Assembly (NCBI GenBank): GCA_973895155.1
Contig: OZ316896.1
Location: 21,519,643 to 21,583,642 of the forward strand
Direction: 5' to 3'
Length of the DNA: 64,000 nt
Source: Marsupella aquatica
Taxonomy: Eukaryota > Plantae > Marchantiophyta
Shown here: in pieces, positions 5,001 to 41,100 of the stretch
How the letters are laid out: the number at the start of each line of letters is the position of its first letter
Position numbering within the stretch: position 1 is the first letter of the stretch
Position numbers and translations under genes: made by a program
The notes under the pieces: generated by a model
Told to the model about the DNA's origin: nothing
What the model saw: only the letters and a program-made list of their open reading frames with translations
Databases searched by the model: none

Positions 5001-6201
5001 AAACATTTATTTCAATTATTATAATATGGAATCCGGCCCAAACTCTCCAAGTGTGCTTACCAACTTGAAAGGAAGGAACAGAATCTAGCCGCCAAATGCA
5101 TTGGAGAATTGTTTTTGTCACTATTCGATCGTGTGAAGTGGAGTGCCCAAACAGGGCCTATTATCTTGGAGGAGGAGCTATTTACCATAGGCTACTAGGG
5201 AGTAAGTGGTGTGCGTGCAGATTATAAACATTATAATACACAATCCCTACCTTTTCCCTCATGGTTTGTGCACTTTTGGATGTAACTCATTTTGCTTGTT
5301 GGATTCAGATCTGCATTTTCCTAGTCATGAGATCTAGTATCATATACAATTTCAATGTATAAATTAAAGTATTATGGTACATGGATATAACTGTATCTAT
5401 TTGCTTCACCTTATTGTGTAAGAAGCCTCAACTCTAGTTATGCTACTAACACTAATTGTGTGGCACAGGGGAATTCGAATACCTCTCTAACTAGTCTAAA
5501 ACTTTGGTTTTTAGCAATAATTGCCAATGATTCAAGAAACTAAAGTGGGGATGGAGCTCCACATTGTTTATGAAGCCAAGATGGATTTGGCAAAGCTTGG
5601 ATGGACTTGCTCCCAAGATTAAATTTGAGTCAATCATATAACTTTGTTTACATTTTTGACTGAAATGTGACCTGTAAATGGTCTTCTTATTGTTTGTAGA
5701 CTGTTTCAGTTATGTTACCCAACCGGTCTCCTCGGTAGCATGGCTATTTGACGACCTTAAACATGAAAGACGTGAGGACATCATGCCATTACTAAGGAAC
5801 ACTGGTTTTCAGTTAACCCATATAAAAATTTCCAATTGTAGAGTGAAATCATGATTCACCATATTTGACCATCTCTGTGTTCATTGAAAATGGAGTGAAT
5901 GATCTAAAAAAAGAGTCAAACTTTGTCACACAATGTATTGGACATGAGAGACCATGCTGGAAATTTGTCAGCTTAAATTAGGATCCAGAAGTCCTTCAAA
6001 TAAATCAAACTATCCGCCAAATTCAAAGGTAAGGTTTGTGTGTCAAAATAGTTATCCTTTGTTGAATGTAATGTGCCATTTTTATGGAAAAGAAACCCCT
6101 AGATACTTCTCTACTTGCATTTTCTTTAAAGAGGTAAATTAAATTCAAAAGTGTAACATTTCAATGCATGCTAAAATAAATGAAAAACCTCCTCATATGA
6201 C

Positions 6202-7108
6202 AAAGCTGATTTTTTCCTCGCTACTCGGTAACCAACACTCCCAAAGCTGACAGGGCCCAATGTGATAAACTAAATCTATGTTGCTTTACATGCTATAACA
6301 AAGCTGATTTTTGCCTCCCTATTCGGTAACCAACACTCCCGAAGCTGATAGGGCCCAATGTGATCAACTAGATCTATGTTGCTTTACATGCTATAACAAA
6401 GCTGATTTTTGCCTCCCTATTCGGTAACCAACACTCCCGAAGCTGACAGGGCCCAATGTGATCAACTAGATCTATGTTGCTCTATACATGCTATAACAAA
6501 GCTGATTTTCCCCTCCCTATTCGGTAACCAACACTCCCGAAGCTGATAGACCCCAATGTGATAAACTAAATCTATGTTGCTGTACATGTTATAACAAAGC
6601 TGATTTTTGCCTCCCTATTCGGTAACCAACACTCCCGAAGCTGACAGGGCCCAATGAGATCAACTAGATCTATGTTGCTCTATACATGCTATAACAAAGC
6701 TGATTTTCCCCTCCCTATTCGGTAACCAACACTCCCGAAGCTGATAGACCCCAATGTGATAAACTAAATCTATGTTGCTCTACATGTTGTAACAAAGCTG
6801 ATTTTTGCCTCCCTATTCGGTAACCAACACTTCCGAAGCTGACAGGGCCCAATGTGATCAACTAGATCTATGTTGCTTTACATGCTATAACAAAGCTGAT
6901 TTTTGCCTCCCTATTCGGTAACCAACACTCGCGAAGCTGACAGGGCCCAATGTGATCAACTAGATCTATGTTGCTCTATACATGCTATAACAAAGCTGAT
7001 TTTCCCCTCCCTATTCGGTAACCAACACTCCCGAAGCTGACAGACCCCAATGTGATAAACTAAATCTATGTTGCTCTACATGTTATAACAAAGCTGATTT
7101 TTGCCTCC
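6202..7108. repeat. 98-100-bp tandem repeat array, left part (9 full units plus a truncated one)
   Basis: Unit aaagctgatttttgcctccctattcggtaaccaacactcccgaagctgacagggcccaatgtgatcaactagatctatgttgctttacatgctataac starts at 6202, 6300, 6398, 6498, 6596, 6696, 6794, 6892, 6992 and 7090; the last unit is cut by the transposon. Confidence 0.97.
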
Positions 7109-7290
7109 ATCACTATATTCATTAAAAGTGGAATTATAAAGAAGATTTGGAAATTTGGGCATTTAAAAACACACTTTTAGGCATAAGAATTGTAAATTTG
7201 AAGGATGAAAAATGAAAATTTAAGCATCATGAATTATAAATTTGGGGCAAAAAAATAGACATTTGGGCAAAGAAAATATTAATTTGGATA
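7109..7290 (+). repeat. Left TIR and AT-rich subterminal region with degenerate ~20-bp periodic repeats
   Basis: 25-bp TIR followed by recurring aaattt(g/a)...aaaa motifs at roughly 20-bp spacing. Confidence 0.7.
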
Positions 7291-7693
7291 ATATTAAAAA
7301 ACATTTGGGTGATAAAAAGTGTTCATTTGGTTGAAAATAGATAGAACGTGTGTAATAACACATAAGCTTGGATAGCATCTATACTCAAAACATCTAGCTT
7401 GGATAGGATCATTATCTAAGCAACAATGAAATGCTAGACAAGTTAAATATCTTATATTCAAACTAGGATGACATCCAAGTAACTTAGAACTGCCATCATT
7501 TTCTAGAAATATATGTACTAAGACAAAAATAACAATTTTTATCAAAAAGTCCATTCAATAACTAAGAAAGATCATAGAGTATTTGATTGCAAGCCTTGTT
7601 CTCTCACTTACTTTAGACAAATGCATGGAAATTAACTTGACCCTCCTACCTACAAGTCATTACATAGTGGACACTTGTGACCACTCTATCACT

Positions 7694-10600
7694 CTACTCA
7701 TCAATACCTTCCATGTAAGTTTTGAGAGTTTTCAAAACATTCTTGGGAATTGTCAAACCTCTATCCATAATATTTTGTTCTTTGGCACCTGACTTAAACC
7801 CATACATTGCAGAATTTGCAAATTGCCAACTTTGAGTGATAGTGTTAAACCCAGGATCTAGCTCCCAAGTCTTAGTGGTCTGAAAGCAACGTTCGTATCG
7901 AACATCATCCTTTGCATCATGCTTACCATGTTTAGGCCTCCACCATTGCACTTGGAACATAGGAGCACACCGCTTAGGAATGCTACTTAGGTGAATGCTC
8001 TTAGAAAACCTTGAAGAAGACCCTTCACTAAATTGCAAATCTAGTGAAGAAACCTCATGGTTTGGATCCACACCACCCAAAGCTCGAACTAACCAGAAAC
8101 GCCCTTTGCCATTTTTTTGCTCCCATTCATCCTCTGGACGTAAAAACACAAAGTGACCCTCTTGAATATCTTGTAGGGGAATCCAACGTGCAAGTTCTCG
8201 CTCTTCTTGTGCACCAACGAAGGGTGCAGCTTGACCTTCCATCTCTTCCATGTACTCATTTTGAAGGTCCATCATCTCTGAATTTTGAGTAGGTTCACTT
8301 GAAGGTTGAGAGGTCCCCAAAATCACCTTGTAACCTGTGCCATGGTTAGTCTTTGGCCAGAAATCAGTTGTCAATGACAATTGTCTTTCTCCCTCCCCTT
8401 CTATTGTAATTGCCTCAGAGAGTGCCATAACAAGCCTCTCCCAATATTTCACCAAAGGAAATCTCTCGCAGTATGCTGCAGAGGTCTCATCCTTGCAACT
8501 TTTCCTCAAGAAATCAATGTAACGATTAAGGAATGGGATGATTTCCTCGACTTTCTTTTGTACCTCCCCCGATATAGGTTTTGCAAATGGTTGGCCCTCC
8601 GGTAAAATGAGCGTGTTTGTGATGAGATCAGTTCTCCAAATTGACCTCCCTGTTGCTGGAAGCCAAGGTTGTTTGACATGTGCTTTATATTGATACACTG
8701 GCACATTATCCCTCATGGAGAATAGAAATGCCACTGGTTTTGAGTGACCTTCAATCTCTTTCACTTGGAAAGCCTTCAAATAGTGCTTGTAAGATGCAAC
8801 CTCCTGAATCAATCGTGGTACGGGATGGATGCTTTCACACTCCCAAACCTCAGCCATCAACGCAAGGAGGGTAGCAACCTCTTTGTACCTGACCTGTTTG
8901 GATACTCGAGAAAATAGTGCATCCACATCCTCATGGGTGTGGCCAACCATGAGGAATGACATTTGCATAGTTTCAAACACCCCCTGCTAACAAGCTCGCT
9001 GCAAAATGCCATCACATATTGATTTTTATTATATTTTCCTGAATTGTTCATCTGCAGTGTTAGGTGCCTTGGTAAGGGCTTGAAAGAGCTTGTAGTCTCA
9101 GGATCAACTCTAGAACCAGCATCTGTTGTGCTGGTTTTTTGGCTCTCCTGACCGTCATCAAGGCCTTGAAACTTGAGAATTGAAACATTTTTGGGTTCCA
9201 AGTAACCCGCTTGAAATGCTTCAAAGTCCAAAAGAGACTGAAATATTGGCCTAGTTGCATTCCAATTGAAAGCTTCAAGCATGTCTCCCGTTTTGTCTCC
9301 AGTGTAATCCTCCAAATCTCGAAGGCATTTGGCCAAAGATGTCACAGTGAAGTCTGCATCTCCAGGCCAAAGGCCAGTCAAACTAAAGTGTGCATACACT
9401 CCTGGATCCCTTCCATGGGTTAACATCCCAGTAAGGGCAATGGCCAGAGGTTGACCACTACCAGAGAGAGATTTTGGAGTGGGGACCAATCTGGGGATCC
9501 AAGTCTTGGCTTGGTCCATCTTATCATGAATAATGCAAAGATAGTTTTGAGGATCCTTCTTTGCAAGAACCCTATGAGCATAGTAAACATATCTCCTTGA
9601 CATTTGTTCACGAAGATGTCGTGCTCTTTTCTCTTCAATCTCTGCACGCTCTTTTTTTCTCTTCTCCCGCATCAATTGATCTTTGAACTCAGTGCAAAAT
9701 GTGCACTTGGCAAATGCACTGCCCTTGTGAAAGTCAAAATTATCAAAAGAATTTTTCCAGATGTTGTACATGGTAACTTCAGTAACCTTAGCATAGCCGT
9801 CCAATTCCATCTTTGCAAATACCTCTTGAAAAATCTCCTTCTTAGTGAAACATGATGGGAGTCGATATTCGACAGTATCGGTGCCGTTGGACCCACCATA
9901 GGGAAGATGTGGCATTGGTTCTCCATTTTGGATTAAAATGGACTCCAACAATGCACGAGCATGCAAGGTGCTTGATCGTGTCTTATGTTGCCCTTGATTT
10001 CCATGGAAACCAATTGTGCACCCAGCTTCGTACTGATTTTTGCAATCATCACACTATTCATTAAAAGTGTATTTTATTTTGTTCACTTTTAGGCCTCTAA
10101 AGATTCACTTTTTGATCTCTAAATGTACACTTTTTAAACCCAAAAGGTACACTAAGGTACAATACTCTACACCTAACTGATCAATTGTAAACTTGAGGGG
10201 GCAAAAATGATCTTGACTATAAGGAGTCTCATCCTAGTTCATTTACAAAGGATGAACATGGTGGTATATTTGATGGCCATCAACTTAATTTCTTGCCCAA
10301 TTGTACACTTTTTGAGGGCCAAATGTATACTTTCTATTGCCCAAGTGTTCATAAATTGAATAATAATTCACTTTTAATGAATAGATTGATAATCATAATA
10401 CTTTGCCGTACTAAACCCATGCATTTTTATGAACGCATCCTTACAAACCACACGTCCCTTTAGAACAAAAAATCCTTTTCTCTTGACTTGGTCTTCTCTA
10501 CACCCAAAAAGATTGAAGATATGACTTGTTTTGTTGTCACTTGACATTCCATGAAATTCCCTCCTTATTGCCTCCAAGTCCTCTCAAGTTGGCATGTTCA

Positions 10601-11778
10601 AGCAACACTTTAACCTGCAACAACCTTCTCTTTGGATGGAATCAATGGACTCCTCGGTGATTTTCAAAAGTGCCCTTGATTGCAAATGTTTTTTTTTTCT
10701 CCTCCAGATCCACTTTGGTCCTTCTAATGAAATTATAAGGTCTTTTTGGAGGTTTCCCATCACCATCCAAATCCGGGTCGCTCTCATTTCGACCCGATTC
10801 TATCCACACATGTGAACCTTTCTCAAGGATATCCCCGAGAAACATTTGAGATGAAATCAACAACAAAGATTTGATTTCCCACCTCACCAAACCTGGAGTA
10901 CCAGCACAGATATTTGGAAATAATGCGGGATCGTTGATATTCACAACAGCTACACCCACATGCTCTGGACCAAGAAGTTCATCATCAACAGCACCTGCTT
11001 CAAAAGGAACTGTGATAACCCCTATCGCAACCTTACGACAACGAGAAACATCATACAAGTCAACTTCCTCTGCCATCCAGTTGGAACGCATTGTAAAATC
11101 TTTCAATGGAAGATCCTTAAACAGGTTTGCACCCGGGTTTGCACCAACAAACATGCCAGAACCTCGAATAGAGCCTTTTCTTGAAACATCAGCAACATCC
11201 CACATTACCCAAGTCTGCATTGCCTCTTGCACTGTGTCAGCTCCAGGATGTGGATACGGTAGTTTTCTATTTCCCTGAACAACCTCTGATATTTGTATAC
11301 TGACACGGCCAACACCGAGTCGTTCACTATGACAAGTGTCCATTGGATTGGTATTGAAGACAACTCCTTTTGATACAAGTTCATCTAAAATGAACATCTC
11401 AACCTCCTCTCCTTCAGCAAGGTTGCCTCCTTTACCACCAACATCCATTTCGGAACATCCTTCATCCCCGTCCACTGGAGTAGGAACACCATCCACAGCG
11501 GTTCTTTTCGGCAATGTTGAAGACCTCAAATATGCCAAGGAAGAATCCCAGATCACACACGAGTCAACTGCATCACCTAGGCTCGATGATGTTTTGGATG
11601 GAAATGGTAGTGGACAAGATGTTTCAAGACACCTCTCGATAAGGACCCCAATTCGATTTTTCCCAAGACAAATATTGTGTATAGTGTCTTTGGGATCAAC
11701 CTTTTGGATGGTCCCAATTGCCACTTCAAAACCATCAATTATCAATGAAACTTCATCCCCTCGCATAAATTTACTCAT
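7694..11778 (-). pseudogene. Sola-like DDD transposase with three N-terminal En/Spm TNP1-like repeats (~1245 aa reconstructed)
   Basis: ORFs 10642-11778, 10584-10787, 10374-10577, 8857-9966 and 7694-8980 join into one protein. Motifs: CCRLKCC, VCKDAFIKMHGFS, HGNQG, CTFC, IIHDKMDQ, LQMNNSGKYNKN (expected LQMDNxxxxNKN), SFLMVGHTHEDVDALFS. Lesions: frameshift in the T-run 10689-10698, TGA at 10584-10586, MITE at 10048-10390, frameshift in the C-run 8980-8984, apparent catalytic D to N change. Confidence 0.85.
10048..10390. mobile_element. 343-bp non-autonomous element (MITE) of the same TIR family, nested in the transposase gene
   Basis: TIRs ATCACACTATTCATTAAAAGTG and ATCAATCTATTCATTAAAAGTG (20/22). 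TSD AATC at 10044-10047 and 10391-10394. Removal restores the frame AKYYD-CKNQYEAGCTIGFHGNQG...LHARALL. Subterminal tacacttttt-type repeats are present. Confidence 0.93.
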
Positions 11779-11956
11779 GGTAGCGAAAGGATCTCTGCAT
11801 CCAAAAACATTTAAAAATTGTTCAGCTGATGTGCATACTGATAAGCACTACTCTAGATATTACAATATTAGATCTAAACATTTGAATTCTATTTAAAGGA
11901 AAAAAATATTTGGGAGTTTATGTGTATTGGCTTTACACAACAGGATTCTAAGGTCA

Positions 11957-12387
11957 GGGACGCTCTTGGAGCGAGGCAAGGTTGCGACGCTCTAGGGGCG
12001 AGGCGATTGAGGGACGCTCTAGGGGCGAGGCGATGGAGGGTCGCTCTAGGGGTGAGGCAATGGAGGGTCGCTCTAGGGGCGAGGAGATGGAGGGTCGCTC
12101 TAGAGGCGAGGCGATGGAGGGACGCTCTAGGGGCAAGGTGAATGAGGGTCGCTCTAGGGGCGAGGCGATGGAGAGACACTCTAGGGGCAAGGTGAATGAG
12201 GGCCACTCTAGGGGCTAGGCGATGGAGGGTCGCTCTAGGGGCGAGGCGGTTGTGGGACGCTCTGATGGCGAGAAAATGGAGAGCGGATGCCCTTGGAGAA
12301 AAGAAAGGGCAGGATGCTCCTGATGAAAGGTAAGTGTGTGACGCTCTTGGAGCGAGGCAAGGGCATGACGCTCTTGGAGCGAGGCAA
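11957..12387. repeat. 27-bp minisatellite built on an imperfect palindrome, upstream of the transposase ATG (probable 5' intron)
   Basis: Unit gggtcgctctaggggcgaggcgatgga, about 11-12 copies at 11957-12270 plus two more near 12340 and 12367. A minus-strand acceptor tgcag lies just upstream of ATG 11778. Confidence 0.92.
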
Positions 12388-13109
12388 CGGGAGAGCAAGA
12401 AAAGATGAGCACAATCCTGGAGAAGCAAGAATTGTGAAGGAAAAGAGAAAATATGGAAATGAATAAATCAGGGGAATGATTAAGCTGAATTAGACCATTG
12501 AAGTGTGTAGACGTGTGGGTAGACGAGTGTGTCGTTAGGAACCCTACATTATCTAGGGCTTAGTTAGGTCCATATATTAAGATAAAGCTAGGGCCAAATA
12601 TTTGGTGGATATCATAGAGAAGAAATTAAGAGAATGGTAGATGAAGTAATACCTCTCTTAAGGACTATAGAAGACGTGTCGCCAACCAAGGACACCAAAA
12701 CTAATGCAATATACTTGAAACAGGACTTTCCTTGCACGAACTCTTGTAACCATAAATGTCCAAGTCAGTCGAATCAGTCACCGAACAGAAGCAAGATAGA
12801 CAAGGGCCGAAGGGCGAGACCGAGAGTGAGCAATGACCAGAAACGCACGCGCCATACAAAAGAGAGAAATGATTGGAACTGTAGAGCTTTATACCATTTG
12901 TGAGCAAGCTTTAGCCAAGTTTGTCCTGAAGGGGTTCACAACATCGAGAGGCCGAAAGTCTGATTACTCTGATCGGCATTCTGTGGACACCCGTACGACC
13001 GTGCATCATTTTTCAAAATCTATGGATACCCGTACAGCTAGGTCATTATGAGGGTTGCGAGTTCACAGGCGCGTGGAAGGGAGCAAGTGGCTGGGTTGCG
13101 TAAGGTCGG

Positions 13110-13160
13110 GTACGATCGGCCGTGGCGTACGATCGGCCGTGGCGTAGGATCGGCCGTGGC
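13110..13160. repeat. 17-bp tandem repeat (x3) in the divergent promoter region of the transposon
   Basis: gtacgatcggccgtggc repeated three times, one with a variant base. Confidence 0.9.
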
Positions 13161-13447
13161 AGTGAGGGTATAGGAAGGCAAAAGGCAAAGACATTACCTC
13201 ATTTGCCTCATTGTCTTCTTGCATCCATCTCCTCCTTCATTGTCTTCTTGCCTGGCTGCCCTGGTTTCCCTCCTCCCTCTTGCCTCGCTCATAGTAGATT
13301 TTCTTGCCTCGCTCTGTTGATTTTTCCTTGCTCATAGTAGATTTGTTTCCTTGCTCTGTAGCCTCGCTCCGTGGTGTGGTCTAGCTATAGGTGTTCTTGT
13401 ATACTAGGCTGCCACGTGTCATCTAAACGTTTGTGAGGCATTTTTCA

Positions 13448-16400
13448 ATGGCTACTTCCTCTAGTTCTGATGATTCTACTAGCACTTCTAGTTCTGGGTA
13501 GTCCCTAAACTTTGATTCTAGTAAAATCTTTGAGTATGATTCTCAAGACACTTTACTAAAGATGTCGGTGGAATCCACTTTGGCCGCCTCAAGGGGATTT
13601 CATATCACAGTTCCACGTAAGTATGATTCAACAATTGATGCAAGTTAGTCTTTGAAGGGTCACTCTTAGAGCGACCTTATCTTGCCTAAGATCTGTCGTT
13701 GTTATTGGTTGGATGTTGATTTAAGTTTTCCTAGGGTCGCTCCAGGAGCGACCCAACTTTGTTGTTGGTTGGACGTTGATTTAAGTTTTCCTAGGGTCGC
13801 TCCACGAGCGACCCAACTTTGTTGTTGGTTGGACCTTGATTTAAGTTTTCCTAGGGTCGCTCTTGGAGCGACCCAACTTATTTGTCGGTTGGACCTTGAT
13901 TTAAGTTTTCCTAGGGTCGCTCCAGGAGCGACCCAAATTTGTTGTTGGTTGGACCTTGATTTAAGTTTTCCTAGGGTCGCTCTAGGGGCGAGGCAACACA
14001 GAAGATCTCTTGCTTTAATGTTTGTCGTTTCAATTTGTTTTTCTAGGAGAACAACTTGGATCCCTAGAGTTAAATATTATGGCCGAGGATGTCAAGGACT
14101 TTATTTTCCCTGGACAAGATAAGGCAGGATTTTTGTGGGCACTTGAAGTAGGGATCATGGAGAATGACTTGTCGATGATTTGTATCAAGGCAATCACTGC
14201 TGAGACAATGAACGACAAGAAGATAGTTGCGTTGGGCCCTGTGGTCCTTGTAAATTGCAGTGATAACCGCAATGTTACAATCATTATTGAATCCAGAGAA
14301 AGATCTCAGTGGATGAGACTTTACTTGCCAATCAAGATGTACTCGTCAATTATCAACGTGGAGTGGATAGCACGCTCGGAGGCTAGTATTTGTTCAATGG
14401 GATTTCTTCCAGATGGGTTCACTGCAGAGGATCTTCTTGAGAGGCATGGAAGATTCAAATTGAGTGGGGTTGATGTTGTCTTTGGATTCCTCTCTGTGAA
14501 GCGGTACATGCATGATCATCCGGACCTTATAGATCTTCCTAACACATGGGTTGTCCAGAGGATGATTGAAACAGCACGCTTTTCATATGAGCAAGCAATT
14601 GATAAGAGTTTTATTTTCTCTGATGAGTTTGACGAAGATGCTTGCATGAAGTGGATTTCAACTCAAAAGAAGAAGGAAGAAAAGCATCGAGGTAAGGCGA
14701 AGATGAAGATGAAGGCCAAAGAAATGACGTCGGCTGAAACACAGAAGAAGAGAAAACAAAGAGAGCCAAGGAGTGAAGGAAGTACTAGAGGAAAAAAGGC
14801 GGCGTTGAAGAAGAAAGATAAGGACTCCGACAAGAAGCCCAAGAAGAAGGCCAAGATTGGAAAATCAAAGCCCGTGTCAGCGTCAAAAGCAAGGTTGGTC
14901 TTGGATCCGGAGGATGATACATGCCCAACAGATGCACCAGAGGAACGAGATGTATTGGAGGGGCAGAAAGCTTTGCGGAACATCGAGCAATACTACACTT
15001 TTGGAATCAGGGAGGTTTTTGAAATCCCGGTTAAAAGTATTCTTCCGCCTACTGCAGTTTTTGTGTATCGGATGTTCAACCAGGCTCATGCCTTAGAGAT
15101 AGCAAAATCAATGATGAAAAACCCTGGCCAGGAACCACATGTTGCAGATTTGATTCCATTTCTAGAGCGCACTAAGCAGTTGTTACATTTTGACAATACC
15201 GCATGCGATCGGAAGCAATTTTTGTTTGGTGTTAAGAAGCAAGAGATACAATTTCTTGCAATCAGTGGGCAACATTCTGCAAAGGCTGCACAATGGATTC
15301 AAGGGTGGGCAGACAAGGATGCCAAGCTAACTGATCTTGCTAGCAAACTCCAATATCTGAAAGCGAGGATCTTATCAGACCTCACTCCAAGGGCAATTTT
15401 GGTCGAGCACTCGAGCCTTTCAAATGCAGTAAATCAGACCATGCAGTTTAAGTCTTGTTTTCTAGAGACAGTTGTTCATGCGAGAAGGCAATTTGATGAA
15501 TGTGGGAAACCACCGCGTCCAGGAATTGGAACAAACCAAAGTACAGACAACCAGAGATACCAGGTAAACATTTTCATTAGTTGGAACTGTAGTTTAATTT
15601 TGCCTCGCTCTTAGAGCGACCCAAATGAAATTGAATGATGAATACAATGATTGCCCCAACCATTTTCATATGGCTTTGTCATTTTCTTCGCCTCGCTCTA
15701 GGGGCGAGGCAGAGAAGTTGAAGTTTCTAAGTTTAAACATCTAACATGTTTTTTGGTGGATGAATGTAAATGCAGGATTGGTTTGCCCTCGCAAAGATAA
15801 CAATGGGAAAGTCGAGCTTGAAAGCCATTTTTTGGTTGCTCTTTGCTGAGGATAAGCTTTTCCATTTGTGGCAAACTGTTTGTTGGGATTGGTTGGCAGG
15901 GAAGCTCCCTGGCGGGGCAGGAGAGTATGGTGGGCCGTGGCCACTAAAGCTGGTCACGCCAACTCTTTTTAGATGTTTTGAAGGGGAGATCAGTTCTAAG
16001 GATATCATTGATATATTGACCGCGGTTTATGAGAAGAAAGCACTTCTCAAGAAAGATGCCTCCAACAAGATGGATCTGGTGTCAATGCCAAATATGGCTC
16101 ATACCATCAAGGTAATGACTAAATTGAAGCAAGTCATTGTTGAGTACTTTGTTGAGAAGCACAAGGAGAAGTTTCCCGGGGGGACATCGTGGGCTTCGGT
16201 GGTCAACATCATGCCGGCCTTGGGATCTCAACTTGAGCTGACAAAATTGCGAAGAGCAGCTGGGGAGGTCTACCTTAGCAGTTTATTAAGGAAGAACATT
16301 GTGAAAGAGGCTTTCCCTCAAAGTCTAATGGTGAGATTAGACGGGTTGTACTACAAACAATTTGGTGGAGTTGGGCGCACACGAACAGAGCCTTTCTTGA

Positions 16401-19400
16401 CGTTCTTCAGTGAGAATCTAATGAAGACAACCACGCCAGACTTATTGGAAGAGGCGACGCCAATGTGTCCACTTGCAATTGTTGATTTTAGTAGGGCACG
16501 ACAACATGAATGGACAGATTCGGAAATTTTTGTATTGCTCCAATATATTGTGGAGTTGCCAAGGAATACAACCATTGTAGTTGTCATGACTACTCATCCA
16601 GGGCCACTTCCAGCCAACATCTTAAGTGCCCTAAGGAAATTAGGACATGAAAAGCATTTGGCCATCCATGTTGAATACGGGAGTTATGATCGGGAAGATC
16701 GCCCAAATCCGCAGGGCTTAATTTTTACAGGAGCGATTGAGCAGGTCATTTTTGCTGGAATTACAGGTGAAGACAATTTTGATTGGAATCAATTGTTTAA
16801 GCCAGAGTTCAATTCAAAATTTAGTTTTCACCCCGATGTTGACTGTGATTTCAATATTGAAGTGAAGGCTGACAAGCAAGAGAAAAGCAAGGGAAAAGAG
16901 AATGAGACAGAGGAGCAGTCTCCCGCATTTGATATGGCAGATTTATTGCGGCAAGCTCCAATGTTTGAGATGGTCGAAAGTCGAGGAGGATTTGTCAATC
17001 CGCATGCCAAGCCCTGACACATGCTCAAAAATATTATTGAATGTTTTTCCGGTGAGGGGGAGACTGTCCTCGATTTTTTTTCAGGAGGGCAGGTTTTGAA
17101 GGTGGCCTTGTTGGCATACCGAGATTGTTTTGTCTATTCAGACACTTTGCAAGAACACCATTTCACCCAAGCATATGCAAGGGTTTTGTGCAACAGGATT
17201 CCCTCCCTTATGAAAGAGCGAATGGGAGTACATGGTCCTAGGAGAGCTCATCTAAGTGTTCTTTGCGGGCCTATGGACAACCCCCAACCGGGCCCTCAGC
17301 GAGTTGACCTTGAGGATGGTGAGTTGCAGCATGATGATGGAGGTTCAAGTCCTATGGTAGAGGAGGATTTTGGCGGAAATTGGGATGCTCGAGCAACAGA
17401 AATGGTTGGCATTACTACCTACGGTGTTGAAGGGCTACCTCAACTCGACATAGTGATGTCGGGTCGCCCTGAGAGCGACCCTCCATCAAATCCTCTCAAC
17501 CCTGAAGTATCAAAATTGCATCCCGAGAGACCGCAGGTATCGTGCACATTGGATGCAGGTTGGCAGAATATTGGGGCCACTACACCCACCACGGACCTAC
17601 AAGTTGGTATTGCAGAAGCGATTGAAGACAACCTTCCACTTGGAGAGACAACAAATGTTGAAGCTGAAGAGGCAGGTGCTTCAACTTGTTCCGAGTCTCC
17701 TCAATTATGTTCGTCAGGGAATAAATTGGTCTTCACAAGGATGTCAAGCGGAAGCCCCATAATATTACGCTTGTCTCAAAAGTCTGGATCTGAGATAGGT
17801 AGAACAAGATATATGAAGACAGTCCGTCATGCAACTCATTTCATTTGGAGAAATGGACCTAAAGTTGGATTGAAAGAAACGTTGGAGGATGCGCCTAAGT
17901 TAATGGTCAAACCTCATTACATAATAGACAAATTGAGATTGAGTCCAGTGTTTGCGCCGGCAACGTTGGTGGAGCAGCTTCCTGTTGGCGTCAATTTTGA
18001 TATCCAAAGTGATCTAGGTGATAAAATGATAGATGAATATGGGTCATTTAGTAGTGGAGGTTAATATTATGGTTTAGTTCTTCTATTTTTCACAATAATC
18101 TAAAATATTATGTTTGGAAATCATATATGGACAGACCAAAGTTTTGTCATAGCATCTCTTCCATCGAAGGATATTATTGGTCTACCTTCAGCAAGCGGTA
18201 CCCTGGTCCAAGACAAAGCATTTGAGCAAGGTACTTCTACATTGATATATCAAAATGCTTTGACATTCAAAAATGATATGTTTGTTTTCCCCATTAGGTC
18301 GGGTCGATCCAGGTTCGACCCTAAGTTCTTCTTTTATATCTTTTAGATATAATTTTGATTCATTTGGATCTTTGCAGATTTCACTCCTAAATTGCACTCT
18401 GATATAAGAAGAAAACTCTTGATTTTGGACCTGAACAAAATTTGTTGGGATTGCGTCAAAACAAAAAGCTCGGGACCGTTAAGATCTACAACAACTGTGC
18501 GGGGTGTGCATTGGGGGAGACGGGGTGGATTCAATTTCATGTACGTGGAAAGGCCAGGGTTGCACCAATTTTTGGAGGTGGCTTTCAAAGGTTTTGATGT
18601 CGCATTGTGGACTTGTGCGGGGAGGCCAAGAACTAATGAAATGATGAATTTGATTTTCAAAGAAGAGGAGCGGAGGCAATTTAAATTTGTTTTCACACAA
18701 GAAGATGCTTTTGATACTGGCATAAAAAGACCGGACGTAGCAGATGGGAAAGGAAATATTATGTTGAAGGATTTGCTTGTGGTGTGGAGTCGTTTTGGAG
18801 ACAAGTATGATGATACAAACACTCTACTTATTGATGACTCTCCAGTGAAGGCTTTTGCAAATCCACAGTATAGTGGTTTGTTCCCAACTCCCTTCTCACA
18901 CGTTGCTGAGAGTGACACTTTTCTACCAGAGATACTTTGGCCATTCCTTAGAAAATTGTGGAAGGCTTATGACATCCGACAATATATATCTGTCAACAAT
19001 CCACTTTGGTCATTTGTTAATATAAATGATGACCGTGAAAGTAATGCTGCAATCACTTTCCCATAAGTGGGGAAGTAAGATTTGGCGTTCCAAGATTGAG
19101 TATACCATCTTGGATGTCACTGGAGATGAGATATGTTGGGAAGTGAGGGATATGGTACAATCCTACCCTACATTTGAGAACCTGACCGAAGATGATATGA
19201 AAGATGTGGTCAACAACTGTTTGGGCGAGTCTTATGCAGGTCCCTTCAGAGAAAATCCTCGCCGATTTGTCTGGGAAGTTCTAAAGACTAGGGATCTCAC
19301 CTCTAAGTTTAAAAACCGTTATCCCAAAGACACTTGCACTCGTGACAGACTATATGACCCAAATGGAGAGCGACTCACTTGTTCAAATCAGTCATGTAGA

Positions 19401-19442
19401 CATATTCATGGAGGCATAGAATTTGAAATTTTAGATGATTAA
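13448..19442 (+). pseudogene. Transposon cargo gene, 5 exons (13448-13616, 14047-15563, 15776-18059, 18135-18230, 18378-19442), ~1700 aa: Lys-rich region, ParB/Srx-like, N4/N6 DNA methyltransferase-like and FCP1/NIF phosphatase-like domains
   Basis: All four GT-AG introns join in phase (1,0,1,1). ParB-like motifs: EIPVKSI..VYRMFN..AKSMMKNPG..FLAISGQHSAKAA. MTase-like motifs: NPHAKP*HMLKNIIECFSGEGETVLDFFSGG..ALLAYRDC. NIF-like motifs: LLILDLN, ERPGLHQFL, VALWTCA, KDL, NTLLIDDSP. Lesions: TAG at 13499-13501, TGA at 17015-17017, +1 frameshift at ~19026-19063. Confidence 0.78.
13705..13995. repeat. 60-bp tandem repeat (~5 copies) in intron 1 of the cargo gene, each copy carrying the 21-bp palindrome
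   Basis: Unit ttggttggaccttgatttaagttttcctaGGGTCGCTCcagGAGCGACCCaactttgttg with an exact 60-bp period. Confidence 0.95.
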
Positions 19443-19729
19443 TCATTATGTTTGTGTACATTGTAGGACACAAGATTGGAGTCATGCAATCATTTTTCTA
19501 TTTCACAGGTCATAGAACTACTTTGGACTTTACACTAGCTTGACCATTGGAGTAGGATCGACATTATGGCTAGCCAACCTTGAATATATGTTATGATAAA
19601 TGAGATGATTAATCTCACTTTGAATTTAATCATGAGTTTTTACCAAATGATACATGTTTGTCACTTATCTATTTAATTTCAAATACAATTAATATTAATA
19701 ATTTCTGTATTATGATTAATTGATTAAAA

Positions 19730-19896
19730 TCAAATTTGGAGTGCAAAAGTGTAATTTTAAACCAAAAAGAGTGTATATTTAGTCTTGAAAAATTGTTTAT
19801 TTGGAGCAAAATTAATGGACTTTTTAGAGACAAGAATGTAAATTTGAGGATCACAATCTGGACTTTTAAATTTCCAGTTTTAATGAATACTGTGAT
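19730..19896 (-). repeat. Right subterminal region with degenerate ~20-bp periodic repeats and the right TIR
   Basis: Recurring aaaa(g/t)tgt..ttt motifs; TIR at 19872-19896. Confidence 0.7.
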
Positions 19897-20567
19897 CTCC
19901 CTATTGGGTAACCAACACTTCCGAAGCTGACAGGGCCCAATGTGATCAACTAGATCTATGTTGCTTTACATGCTATAACAAAGCTGATTTTTGCCTCCCT
20001 ATTCGGTAACCAACACTCGCGAAGCTGACAGGGCCCAATGTGATCAACTAGATCTATGTTGCTCTATACATGCTATAACAAAGCTGATTTTCCCCTCCCT
20101 ATTCGGTAACCAACACTCCCGAAGCTGACAGACCCCAATGTGATAAACTAAATCTATGTTGCTCTACATGTTATAACAAACAAGCTGATTTTTGCCTCCC
20201 TATTCGGTAACCAACACTCCCGAAGCTGACAGGGCCCAATGTGATCAACTAGATCTATGTTGCTCTACATGCTATAATAAAGCTGATTTTTGCCTCCCTA
20301 TTTGGTAACCAACACTCCCGAAGCTTACAGGGCCCAATGTGATAAACCAGATCTATGTTGCTCTACATGCTATAACAAAGTTGATTTTTGCCTCTCTATT
20401 CGGTAACCAAGACTCCCGAAGCTGACAGGGCCCAATGTGATCAACTAGATCTATGTTGCTCTACATGCTATAACAAAGCTGATTTTTGCCTCCCTATTTG
20501 GTAACCAACACTCCCGAAGCTTACAGGGCCCAATGCGATAAACTAGATCTATGTTGCTCTACATGCT
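19897..20567. repeat. 98-100-bp tandem repeat array, right part (~7 units)
   Basis: Same unit as 6202-7108, resuming at ctccctatt immediately after the right TIR. Confidence 0.97.
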
Positions 20568-37610: not shown

Positions 37611-38155
37611 GGATTTCCTGCGGACTACCGTTGGACGTAAAGAGGTGTAGCCAAGGGAAGGTCTTGATTCTTTCTACAGCGGTCAGAGCAGTCAAGCTAT
37701 AAACTCCCCAAGTAGCCAGCCTTGGTTGCGTAATGGGTGCGCACTCCGGTTCTGATTGTCAATAAAGCACCTGTTTATTTTCTACTCAATGCGAATGATG
37801 AGCGACAACAAGAACAACAGCAAGCGGATAGCGTATGGTGTCCTGGTCAATTAGAATTGTTGCCTAGGAAGTCGGATACGAGAAGGAGGAGGAGACGATT
37901 TGCATCTGAAGGTTTTTCCTTTCGTGTGAATAATAGGAATCACTACTTGTGGAGAGGATTATGGTCTTCAGATTTCTGCAAGGAAAAAGCTAAGCGAGAG
38001 AGAGATAAAAGGGAGGAGAGAATTGGTAAGGCGGATTGTGTGCTAATCAGACATCTCGTAGGAAAACCATAGACGACGAAGGGGGAGAAAACTGAGAGAG
38101 GATTTGAGCTTGAGAGCAGATGATGGACGCGTAACGAGCGCAGAACATTCATGGT

Positions 38156-41100
38156 ATGGCGACGTTGCTGATGAGACCGGGGGATGGTGGGAGTGGGGAC
38201 AAGAAGCGCCGAGCGCGGAAGGGCAAGAATGCGCAGAAAAAGCAGCCGCAACGAGGGCTGGGAGTGGCGCAGCTGGAGAAGCTGCGTCTACAAGAGCAGA
38301 GCCTCCTCTGCCCGACTCCGCCGTCGTATACTTTGCGCCTCTCCGCAACGGATTCGGATCACCACATGGCCCGGTGCGACACCGATGCTTTGTCGCAGAC
38401 TGTCCTCTCGTTGACCACTTCGAATGTGCATGGCCAAGCAGGCGGAGGGGGCTCCACCAGCAGCGTGGTGCGTGGTGCGGAAGGGGGCACCTTGTCGCGC
38501 CTAAGTTCCTTGAATGGACACTCCGCCGCCCAGAGCTGCTTGTCTCCACATCTAGCTCATGATATGAGCAAGTGCAACGTCGCTGAAGCCTTTCATGCTG
38601 CTGCCAAGGTTGCCGTGGCATCCAGGTCCTTAGCATGTCTGAGTCAGACCTCCAAATTCTCGTCCGTCAATGCTTCGTTCTTCTCGAATATGTTGACCGC
38701 CACTCAACTGCAGATACTTGAAAGCCAGGCTCAGGCTCAGCAAAAAGTGGCGGAAGAATGGAGGACAGCTGCTGCGACTGGGGTCGTAGAGCACTCTGGA
38801 AATCCTGCTCCCGCGTTCGTCTACCCTTCGGGCACCAATCACCTCAAAGAAGCTCCAGCAAATCATGTCAACAATGAAGACCTTAAGCTCCACCCGCTGT
38901 TCAAAGATCATGTACAATCCAGCGCCCTCTTAACTTCCGCTGATTTGCACTGCCTTGAATCACTGATCTGATCAGACGAGTCCCTTGTTCTAAGACCGCA
39001 TCGAGTCCATTTATCTTGTGGTTGTTCTAATACTTTTCTATGCACGCTGCTGTTCTCGACAATCATCTTCAATTGAAGTGTCTAGCCACGGCAGCTGGTT
39101 CAAACCAATTGCGTGCTCTTCTCTTCATGATCAATTGCGAATATTGATCTGGTCCGTTGTTCTAATTAGGATATTAGTCAGTCTTCTTTTGGTCAAAATC
39201 TCGTCAGCGTGCCAGTAAGTGAATGTCTTCACCAACTTATTTGTTGAATCATGAGGATTGGGCACACACCACGGAAGTACAACGCACTCGTAATATATAT
39301 CGTATTGCATCTGGTTTAGGTCGTCGCACCCACAAACATCGTGAGAACGAACTCAGCAAAGGAGCTCTCTTCTTTCCAAAACTATGCAAGTCAACAAGCA
39401 TGGCCACCGGTAGAGAAGGTAAGATCCGAATTCTCCTGTAGGCACAGAAATCACCGGAATCTGATGAGTTTGTCGAGTCAGACCTTGTCGATTCTTTTAC
39501 GCCAACCCTGCTCTTTGGTCGTCCGTGGGAGTCATATCAGTCAAATGGATGCTCGTCTCCGGGGATACCGTCAGGCTGCTTCTAGATTGGATGCCAAGAT
39601 CATATATCCAATTTGTTTGGAAGAATTTTCCATTGAATGCGTTTTAGGCAGAACATCCAGTGGGGTGGAAGACTGAAGAGGCTAGGCTTGCTCGTATGCC
39701 GTCTGGACGCCAAACACCTAGGCAGAAATTTCATGCCTTGCCCAGTCCTCGAGTTCATGACTTGGGAACTGAGATTGATTACCGTAGCGTGAGTACAGCG
39801 TTCTTGTGACTCATTTGTGTGACACGGTTGTACTCATTGTGAGTGGATTGTTCAGAGTTTTTAATATAGACTGCTTTAGATAAAGGCTGCAGAGCGATTT
39901 ATACGCGTCTTCTCAAGTCGTTTCCCCTTTCATCGTATAGCGTCAAGATTCTGACTCTACTGGCAATTTGGTACATGAATGGTACGGCTGGACGGTGGGT
40001 AGGTAGCGGGAAGGAAACGGCCATGGCTTGCTCTGCAAGAGAGTTCGAGGCACGGTTGTTACGCGCAGGCTTTAGACCTAAACGCTCCTTTCGAGGAAAC
40101 CGATGCTGCCTTCAGCGAACGCAGACCAGTCGGACGACCCAACCAAGTTCCTGAGTTTCGAGTCGGAACACACTACACAACCGGCATTGTTCGGTAATCA
40201 CGAATCACATCCTATTCCGTCTATTCCAATTTCTGCATGTTTGCCACGTCGCCGTCGCTCACTTAACAATAATTAATAAATCTAGCCATAAGTTTTCTGA
40301 GGAACCGTAACCTCCTGAATTCGGTGTGCAACGATAGTACTTACTATTGAATGATGGCCGATGTAGCACATCCATATATGATAATATTTAAAATCCGCGA
40401 TCAGGCCCACGAGATGCGCAGTAGGAGCAGTTTTGTAACTTCACCAGAGATATGATACTTGTTTAAAGATTGCCTGAAGATTGCCTACATTGATGTGGCC
40501 CTTTGACTCTCTAATCTCTAATTGATTGATTGATGTGCAGAACTGCGCTCGGTAATTCATCTCTTCCTCCCATTGCGAAGATCAAGGTGTGGTCGTCGGG
40601 GTCACACTGGCAAGACAATGAGAGTCCGTCGCATGTCACTGCGTATTTCCCTGAAATGGGGGTGTGCGCAGAGAATGCGGTAGGCTTCAGACAGTGCCCA
40701 AGCCAGTCTTCGATCAAAGATAGCTGCTCGAGCGTCACGGGTCCGAGCAGCTATTTCTCTCGTAATCGGCAGACTTCCCTCAAAGATCCTGACCACACCC
40801 CTTCCCCAGTCGTTGAGAAGGAATCAATTTGTAGTAATTTCCTCACCCTGGGCATATCGAGCTCGTCCTACCCGGATCGCAAGGGGTGGACCGAGCCTGA
40901 AGAAAGCATTCAGGACAACACCCCGACGAGCATCATGAACGATATCAACAGATTGAAGCAGCACGAGACGACCACCACAAGCGGGTGTTGTGAAGCTGAT
41001 AATCATTGTTCGCAGGTTCGGATTCCACAGGTTCGGATTTCCATCTGTACGCAGGTAAAGAGTTCTTGCTGCGCGCAGCTGGATTACAATTTCCTTTTCT

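Follow-up and report, generated by a model that had tools for sequence, protein, structure and literature searches.

Predicted joining of a methyltransferase-like and an FCP1-like domain in the second gene of a Sola-type transposon from the liverwort Marsupella aquatica

The known accessory proteins of plant transposons, VANC, TnpA and MURB, come from Mutator and CACTA elements of flowering plants. In the passages of three papers that deal with VANC, its targets are short motifs lying in tandem arrays within the element (PMC5735166, PMC10398659, 10.64898/2026.08.24.746577). Another kind of element-borne protein is represented by DIRS1 retrotransposons, which carry an inactive N6A-methyltransferase domain; a passage of PMC4738411 proposes that this domain contacts RNA polymerase II or transcripts. 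Here we describe gene 2, the second gene of a DNA transposon in a stretch of 64,000 nucleotides from the liverwort Marsupella aquatica (assembly GCA_973895155.1, contig OZ316896.1, positions 21,519,643 to 21,583,642 of the forward strand). This whole stretch is called the window, and positions are counted from its first letter. The last coding exon of gene 2 encodes a NIF/FCP1-like domain, and the reading frame and splice signals suggest that intact copies of the element probably splice it, with removal of intron 2, onto the exon that encodes a methyltransferase-like domain. Like VANC of VANDAL elements and TnpA of Spm, as far as the passages cited describe them, gene 2 is a second element-encoded protein accompanied by short motifs in tandem arrays inside the element. 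No homology to either is shown, the passages of 10.64898/2026.08.24.746577 describe no enzyme-fold modules for them, and the binding and anti-silencing roles of the gene 2 protein are putative. With DIRS1 it shares a catalytically dead amino-methyltransferase on a mobile element, whereas the domain of DIRS1, in the account of PMC4738411 that we consulted, belongs to a PCIF1-derived group, sits on a retrotransposon and has no phosphatase-like partner.

When positions 14079-15563, 15776-18059, 18135-18230 and 18378 onward were joined, one frame was obtained, with TGA 17015-17017 as its sole internal stop and its end at 19066. It stays open from exon 2 into KLLILDLNKICWD, ERPGLHQFL, VALWTCAG, KDL and NTLLIDDSP. 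Without splicing, the frame of exon 2 stops at TAA 18062-18064, inside intron 2. An earlier, sequence-only reading of this DNA had proposed two phase-1 introns, 18060-18134 and 18231-18377, joining in frame through a 96-bp exon; both lie at these places as predicted introns with GT-AG ends. Their GC content is below that of exon 3 (Fisher p 0.014) and below that of the flanking coding exons (p 2e-5). An in-frame join is cheap by chance, however: among 5,000 base shuffles of 18032-18400, some in-frame GT-AG join was found in 34%, and one with a consensus-like donor and a pyrimidine-rich acceptor in 2.3%. The case for the fusion must therefore rest on relatives. Since the real sequence also offers 21 alternative in-frame splice paths, the frame is robust and the exact splice sites are a prediction. 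Intron 3 is required under every reading, because no Met codon occurs in the NIF frame on the way from its acceptor to motif I. In the front half of the gene, exon 1 is 34% identical to the related protein P0129 over 261 amino acids. The residues joined by removal of intron 1 (FQ|DW) are joined in the same way in Calypogeia model P0028 and lie in an uninterrupted open reading frame (ORF) in P0129. This half of the model is secure, since P0129 holds the ParB-like and methyltransferase-like parts in one ORF and P0028 shows the same join. Donor phases deduced from the last residues of related ORFs were dropped as too permissive.

The window copy cannot itself make the fusion, because its TGA lies upstream of introns 2 and 3. 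This stop is private to the window copy, since position 17015 is C in all covering contigs of 4/4 runs. Seven sequencing runs contain the stretch, none on record as RNA, which has no bearing on expression, and contigs from six of them were compared (X1, X2, X4 and X5, then X2, X3, X4 and X7). In the window the NIF frame stops at 19066, and 19026-19442 lies in another frame. Contigs of other copies have 8 extra nucleotides behind 19054, in both runs that cover the site; these put the ORF 19026-19442 into the NIF frame, so that the intact product would have about 1,645 amino acids. One contig of 2,033 nt runs from the last part of exon 2 through both introns into the NIF exon and differs from the window by 10 substitutions. 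Indels among copies lie inside intron 3 (a 4-nt insertion at 18265 and a 1-nt deletion at 18289), and none is listed in exon 3. As the runs may include the window's own species, they indicate that NIF is present in the family, not that it is old. Two features of run X4 were not accepted as splicing. A gap over 18063-18328 was rejected, the run being read to 57% and one contig beginning inside intron 3; a joint 18014-18367 was set aside because it rests on 22 letters of one contig. Contigs about 90-93% identical and of lower depth at 17851-18053, 15826-16107 and 17306-17540 point to at least one diverged element subfamily in the same runs.

The named relatives of gene 2 come from the liverworts Riccia sorocarpa and Calypogeia fissa. 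Eleven relatives of the NIF protein (44-68% identity) share its C-terminal domain. The Cys spacing of the zinc-finger-like motif, which had no Pfam match, closes 7 of the 11, where it reads C-x14-C-x4-C-x2-[CH] (the other four are truncated), and is also present in metagenome contig L001. The order exon 2, short exon, NIF and zinc-finger-like tail is fixed across the family. On L001, whose NIF is 43% identical, the end of exon 2 lies about 290 nt upstream of KLLILDCNG, and the sequence between them has an AT-rich, GC-richer, AT-rich layout; the contig looks decayed (EDSP, EYRS). In the metagenome scan 2 of 72 loci belonged to the family, with upstream sequence in L001 only, and the other 70, distant DLNG homologues, gave no hit in tblastn with exon 1, exon 2 or the transposase. 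Searches for long NIF-fused proteins yielded none among 704 candidates with a single sequence and only 7 host-type DLNG proteins with a profile, both searches being weak for spliced genes. The two domains are joined in two Riccia models: P0115 (999 amino acids) carries PF01555 and most of a NIF domain (PF03031) in one chain, and in P0103 the methyltransferase-like part runs into RKLLILDVEG, the first NIF motif. In a quick tree of 76 NIF rows, a branch with SH-aLRT 96 split off the 14 element-type rows, and the 7 DLNG proteins of plant hosts fell on its other side. The tree gave long-branch warnings for P0115 and had no canonical SCP1/FCP1 outgroup; its transposable-element label was set by similarity, element context being known for the window and linkage for L001 only.

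These results bear on whether NIF is a recently captured fragment of a host gene with no role in the element. Plant hosts do have DLNG-type NIF genes, and gene capture is common among elements with terminal inverted repeats (TIRs). The sequence-only reading had named a captured fragment, absent from other copies, as the outcome that would tell against it; NIF was found in other copies instead. It is linked to the same upstream exon in L001 at 43% identity, joined in the Riccia models, and forms its own long-stemmed group in the tree, with a family-specific C-terminal domain and only 25-32% identity to host proteins. Recent capture is therefore very unlikely, to the point that we give it next to no credit.

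A different question is whether both domains are made as one protein, and several observations weigh against this. Among the runs examined, none of which is recorded as RNA, no junction read or spliced contig was found. Exon 2 retrieved 115 relatives, only one of which has a NIF match; 8 of the 10 Riccia models with a methyltransferase-like domain have no NIF, and the two joined ones are predictions, neither with a complete NIF domain. L001 as sequenced gives no clean GT-YAG path into the NIF frame (five appear only if its A-run is one base short), and an ATG overlapping its upstream stop is open through the exon-3-like stretch. Intron 2 in the window contains ATG 18110, which shares the frame of exon 3, and the protein of Calypogeia model P0034 stops 9 residues after EYGS.

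It might be, then, that the methyltransferase-like protein ends at TAA 18064 and that NIF is a separate protein beginning at ATG 18110, made from a short transcript of its own, with intron 2 retained or by re-initiation, and with only intron 3 spliced. The two ATGs and the end of P0034 would agree with this, and the indels between copies back intron 3 only. Relatives from 14 clusters (17 proteins, including 3 cluster duplicates) end 2-21 residues after the E[YFH]GS that closes exon 2, which is compatible with a true C-terminus; on the protein sequences such endings would fit a conserved intron equally well. Eight further regular-expression matches to E[YFH]GS were truncated ORFs ending at another motif and were left out. 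On the other hand, the AT-richness of 18060-18134 (23% GC), a donor two bases ahead of the stop and a CAG acceptor in phase are the marks of an intron, and the 45 nt between stop and ATG, without AATAAA, leave little room for a terminator and a promoter. Re-initiation is rare in plant nuclear mRNAs, and the two Riccia models join both domains. The frame, the splice signals and these models favour the methyltransferase-NIF fusion claimed earlier, which we consider likely but less firm than claimed, as ATG 18110 gives a separate NIF protein some standing; we consider the latter rather unlikely.

The NIF domain matches PF03031 over profile positions 1-160 of 160 (E 3.4e-16, 59.8 bits against a cut-off of 21.8). 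Its structure model (mean confidence, pLDDT, 81) matched CTDNEP1, SCP1, SCP2, UBLCP1, Tim50 and Fcp1 in Foldseek, with probability 1.00 to SCP1, CTDNEP1 and Fcp1 and a TM score of about 0.75 over SCP1; by sequence search only UBLCP1 was found. The domain therefore has the HAD/FCPH fold of the FCP1/SCP phosphatases, as the sequence-only reading had said. It shares with these enzymes (SCP1, CTDNEP1, UBLCP1, Fcp1, Tim50) the Thr of motif II, the Lys of motif III and DDSP in motif IV, represented by WT, K130 and D152-D153, of which the last two are invariant in 12/12 rows. It differs from them in having DxN in motif I, in being borne by a transposon and in preceding a domain that is peculiar to the family and holds a zinc-finger-like motif; profile searches of the gene 2 NIF product gave no BRCT or UBL match. 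Instead of DxDx(T/V), motif I reads DLNKI in the window and DxN in 8/8 relatives that cover it (of 11), with DVEG in Riccia P0103. All 68 tree rows in which the motif was read, of 76, have DxN. The earlier comparison of DLNKI with a DLNG group, defined by DxN together with DDSP, therefore stands; DLNG is what we take to be the name of this subfamily, a term that was not found in the literature searched.

The second Asp of motif I is the general base in Fcp1 according to a passage of PMC4436666, and assists the attack in SCP1 according to a passage of PMC7281111. As it is replaced by Asn, the domain is FCP1-like in fold but lacks the defining motif. Could it still be a true phosphatase of the RNA polymerase II (Pol II) C-terminal domain (CTD), targeted by the transposon to its own promoters? 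The Foldseek matches to SCP1, SCP2 and Fcp1 (E 7e-10 to 1.5e-6) and the linkage to a likely DNA-binding module within the transposon would suit this idea. However, DxDx(T/V) is missing, the best structure and sequence matches, CTDNEP1 and UBLCP1, act on other substrates, and Tim50 scores alike. In addition, identity to SCP1 is only 16-20%, and the domain groups with uncharacterised DLNG proteins. With Asn in place of the general acid/base Asp throughout the family, a phosphatase of the Pol II CTD is unlikely, and we hold its chances to be slight. For the link to Pol II made in the sequence-only reading nothing was found except the fold, and that is common to CTDNEP1, UBLCP1 and Tim50 in equal measure.

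If the fusion is real, the DxN domain might instead be a live hydrolase acting on a non-CTD substrate, such as a DNA or RNA end that bears a phosphate, or a phosphoprotein of chromatin, encountered in transposition. Relatives at 44-68% identity keep the nucleophile Asp, the motif II Thr, the Lys and DDSP, and strict conservation of the remaining catalytic residues suits a live enzyme as well as a trap, a point against the binding role favoured below. Homologues from plant hosts and aquatic sources have DxN as a rule as well, hence conserved chemistry rather than decay. Turnover is still possible for HAD enzymes that have no second Asp, and the SCP1 mutant D98N is said to retain some activity. 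Against this stand the activation of the hydrolytic water by the second Asp in Fcp1 and its help in the attack in SCP1 (passages of PMC4436666 and PMC7281111), the lack of any substrate indicated by the analyses, and a neighbouring methyltransferase-like domain that is likewise without its catalytic motif. A live hydrolase seems improbable. The caveat of the sequence-only reading, that the domain may be a pseudo-phosphatase, is the likelier view.

Outside the element, the nearest relatives are land-plant and aquatic microbial proteins of the DLNG type with an "FCP1 homology domain", which are alike in DxN motif I and DDSP. The element domains, 25-32% identical to the host proteins, sit on their own branch and behind a methyltransferase-like exon, a context that the host proteins are without. 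Two arrangements were seen among the metagenome homologues. On gene-dense, eukaryote-like contigs (L047, 9439-11617; also L026, L034 and L041-L046) two tandem DLNG-type NIF genes adjoin genes for a PPR-methyltransferase, Rad17 and an RFC subunit. On a gene-dense aquatic contig (L008, 9980-10540) a short stand-alone DLNG NIF gene lies near genes for a PHO4 phosphate transporter and a glycosyltransferase; 30 L008-like rows form their own branch, which might originate from large algal viruses.

The methyltransferase-like domain in exon 2 has a profile match to M.RsrI (E 2.4e-9), and the model of P0129 superimposes on CcrM with Z 17.8 and a root-mean-square deviation of 3.6 Å over 219 residues. 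It has the permuted amino-methyltransferase fold with motifs of the S-adenosylmethionine (SAM) site, DFFSGG and H/NPxxKP being kept. Fold, motif order and SAM-site motifs are those of the beta-class amino-methyltransferases CcrM, M.RsrI, M.PvuII and bdelloid N4CMT (Z 15-18). In contrast, the catalytic motif IV [DNS]PP[YFW] is found in 0/115 relatives; it is replaced by DF[ST]R or DLTH in all of them and by DFSR in the window. The fold is real and the catalytic motif is lost family-wide, which weakens the label of methyltransferase given earlier. The ParB label given to the same protein was not confirmed. The region in exon 1 had no match in Pfam, PHROGs or PDB-profile searches, and its model (pLDDT under 50-60) was too poor for a fold search. 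AISGQHS at about 15258-15278 is the only ParB-like feature; its GQHS, present in 4 of 5 aligned rows, presumably resembles the GxHR motif of ParB. ParB-HTH fusions are known for chlorophyte-type Dam, a different methyltransferase group, according to a passage of PMC4738411. The small domain that closes exon 2 (17690-18059, W..GP.KG to DEYGSF) had no family match, and the P0129 model has pLDDT >90 at about residues 940-980.

The element also contains an imperfect palindrome, CGCTC-N3-GRGCGA, with 36 matches (21 sites) where 0.47 would be expected. All of them lie inside the element (11960-17478), and none occurs in the remaining 51 kb of the window. Two tandem arrays, unrelated to each other and lying between the divergent genes, contain eighteen of the 21 sites; two are in intron 1 and one is in exon 2. 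A motif has thus accumulated in arrays of the element, as for VANC and TnpA. We lean, by a little, towards the view that gene 2 encodes a spliced protein of about 1,645 amino acids that would serve as a binding adaptor specific to the element and would not work as a methylase or Pol II phosphatase. As both enzyme-like domains are without a key catalytic residue, the product would probably bind its targets rather than modify them. The N-terminal and pseudo-methyltransferase parts might bind the element's own palindromes or modified DNA. The DxN pocket, in which the nucleophile Asp, the Thr, the Lys and the DD pair are kept, might bind a phosphorylated partner with slow or no turnover. A phospho-regulated host factor of the transcription or silencing machinery could in this way be tethered at the two divergent promoters, and the element would stay expressed, an effect that VANC and TnpA have on other plant transposons. 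That DNA binding, capture of a phospho-partner and tethering should all hold together is a tentative proposal by analogy, and we would sooner expect one of them to fail. The palindromes might instead serve the transposase or the 401-aa ORF as binding sites, which counts against the adaptor. A wider idea, a long shot at present, is that the Sola-type transposons of seed-free plants have for a long time encoded an anti-silencing protein with sequence specificity, made from two repurposed enzymes. In it, a DNA methyltransferase fold of bacterial type would read the DNA, and at the element's own promoters an FCP1-like pocket would capture or edit a phospho-mark carried by a silencing factor or by RNA polymerase (II, IV or V).

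Table 1. Features of gene 2 and of the transposon that carries it (window coordinates; TSD, target-site duplication)
Feature	Position	Strand or length	Remarks
Gene 2 coding exon 1	14079..15563	+	N-terminal domain, Lys-rich stretch, ParB-like motif region ~15000-15480
Intron 1, phase 0	15564..15775	+	holds two palindromes (15606, 15694)
Gene 2 exon 2	15776..18059	+	helical region, methyltransferase-like domain, acidic linker, small conserved domain ending DEYGSF
Beta-class amino-methyltransferase-like domain	~16390-17200	+	DFSR at 16484 in place of DPPY; DFFSGG at 17072
Premature TGA	17015..17017	+	private to window copy
Predicted intron 2, phase 1	18060..18134	+	75 nt, G|GTTAAT..ACAG, 23% GC
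Predicted exon 3, linker	18135..18230	+	96 bp, 44% GC
Predicted intron 3, phase 1	18231..18377	+	147 nt, AAG|GTACTT..GCAG, 33% GC
Gene 2 last coding exon	18378..19442	+	NIF/FCP1-like domain, then C-terminal domain; frameshift near 19054 in window copy
NIF/FCP1-like HAD domain	18413..19000	+	DLNKI 18428-18442, WT 18608-18613, K 18767-18769, DDSP 18833-18844
Zinc-finger-like motif C-x14-C-x4-C-x1-3-[CH]	19335..19409	+	end of family-specific C-terminal domain
Array of 12 palindromes in 27-bp repeat	11960..12382		candidate protein-binding sites
Array of 6 palindromes in 60-bp repeat	13660..13991		just upstream of gene 2
Whole DNA transposon	7109..19896	12,788 bp	TIR pair, 4-bp TSD, transposase
Left TIR, starts ATCAC	7109..7140	+	32 bp; 84% complementary to right TIR
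Right TIR	19865..19896	-	32 bp; pairs with 7109-7140
Transposase gene, broken	7694..10053	-	two frames; 5' side cut by nested small element
Nested non-autonomous element	10048..10390	343 bp	ATCAC termini as in host element; AATC TSD
401-aa ORF upstream of transposase	10642..11847	-	three internally repeated units

The transposon as a whole is flanked by the TSD CTCC (7105-7108 and 19897-19900). Its insertion target was a 98-bp tandem array of about 16 copies, 90-93% alike (6196-7108 and 19897-20567 of the window); the array has the same orientation on either side and is therefore the target and not part of the element. The transposase ORFs 7694-8986 and 8857-10053 match DUF7869 in Pfam (E 9e-22 and 2.6e-13), a family which we take to be linked to Sola transposases. 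The nested 343-bp element, inserted in the transposase gene of its own family, supplies a second instance of a 4-bp TSD. The 401-aa ORF had no family match in Pfam or PHROGs and presumably resembles the accessory repeats of CACTA elements. Background on transposon classification was taken from parts of PMC4455052, PMC5751038 and 10.1101/2021.09.26.461848. In the part of the PMC12973397 supplement consulted, four Sola clusters of mosses and a fern have 4-bp TSDs, TIRs of 26-32 bp and a length of 10-11 kb. The element is classed as apparently Sola-type because its 4-bp TSDs, TIR length and size resemble those of these clusters, an assignment by TIRs and TSD that is separate from any Sola1/2/3 profile comparison. 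Its termini differ, being ATCAC where those of the moss and fern elements are GGGTG/AACAC. Elsewhere in the window, a host gene at 38135-38971 carries the motif QPQRGLGVAQLEKLR, which we take to be that of land-plant SPEAR/TIE/SPOROCYTELESS-like repressors.

In the full-text literature searched, which excludes Repbase and most subscription journals, no report of a NIF domain in a transposon or of this architecture was found, and nothing relevant on Sola elements in mosses or ferns. The supplement text of a survey of TIR elements in 1,007 genomes (PMC12973397), whose long files may be incomplete, has no entry for NIF, PF03031 or N6_N4_Mtase. Phosphatase, Sola and ParB are likewise absent from the main text, as far as available, of recent papers on transposon products, including 10.64898/2026.08.24.746577. 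The accessory-gene architecture is real, conserved and apparently undescribed, and it belongs to a known kind of element.

If the proposed role is true, a deeply diverged family of large Sola-type elements with liverwort relatives, carrying a pseudo-methyltransferase beside an FCP1-like domain, would be a separate solution to the same control problem, and it would tie transposon control to phospho-signalling. The family also offers a way to study the DxN (DLNG) branch of FCP1-like proteins, which is uncharacterised: its copies are numerous and nearly identical, it has candidate binding sites, and its domain is small, folds well and is open to direct assay.

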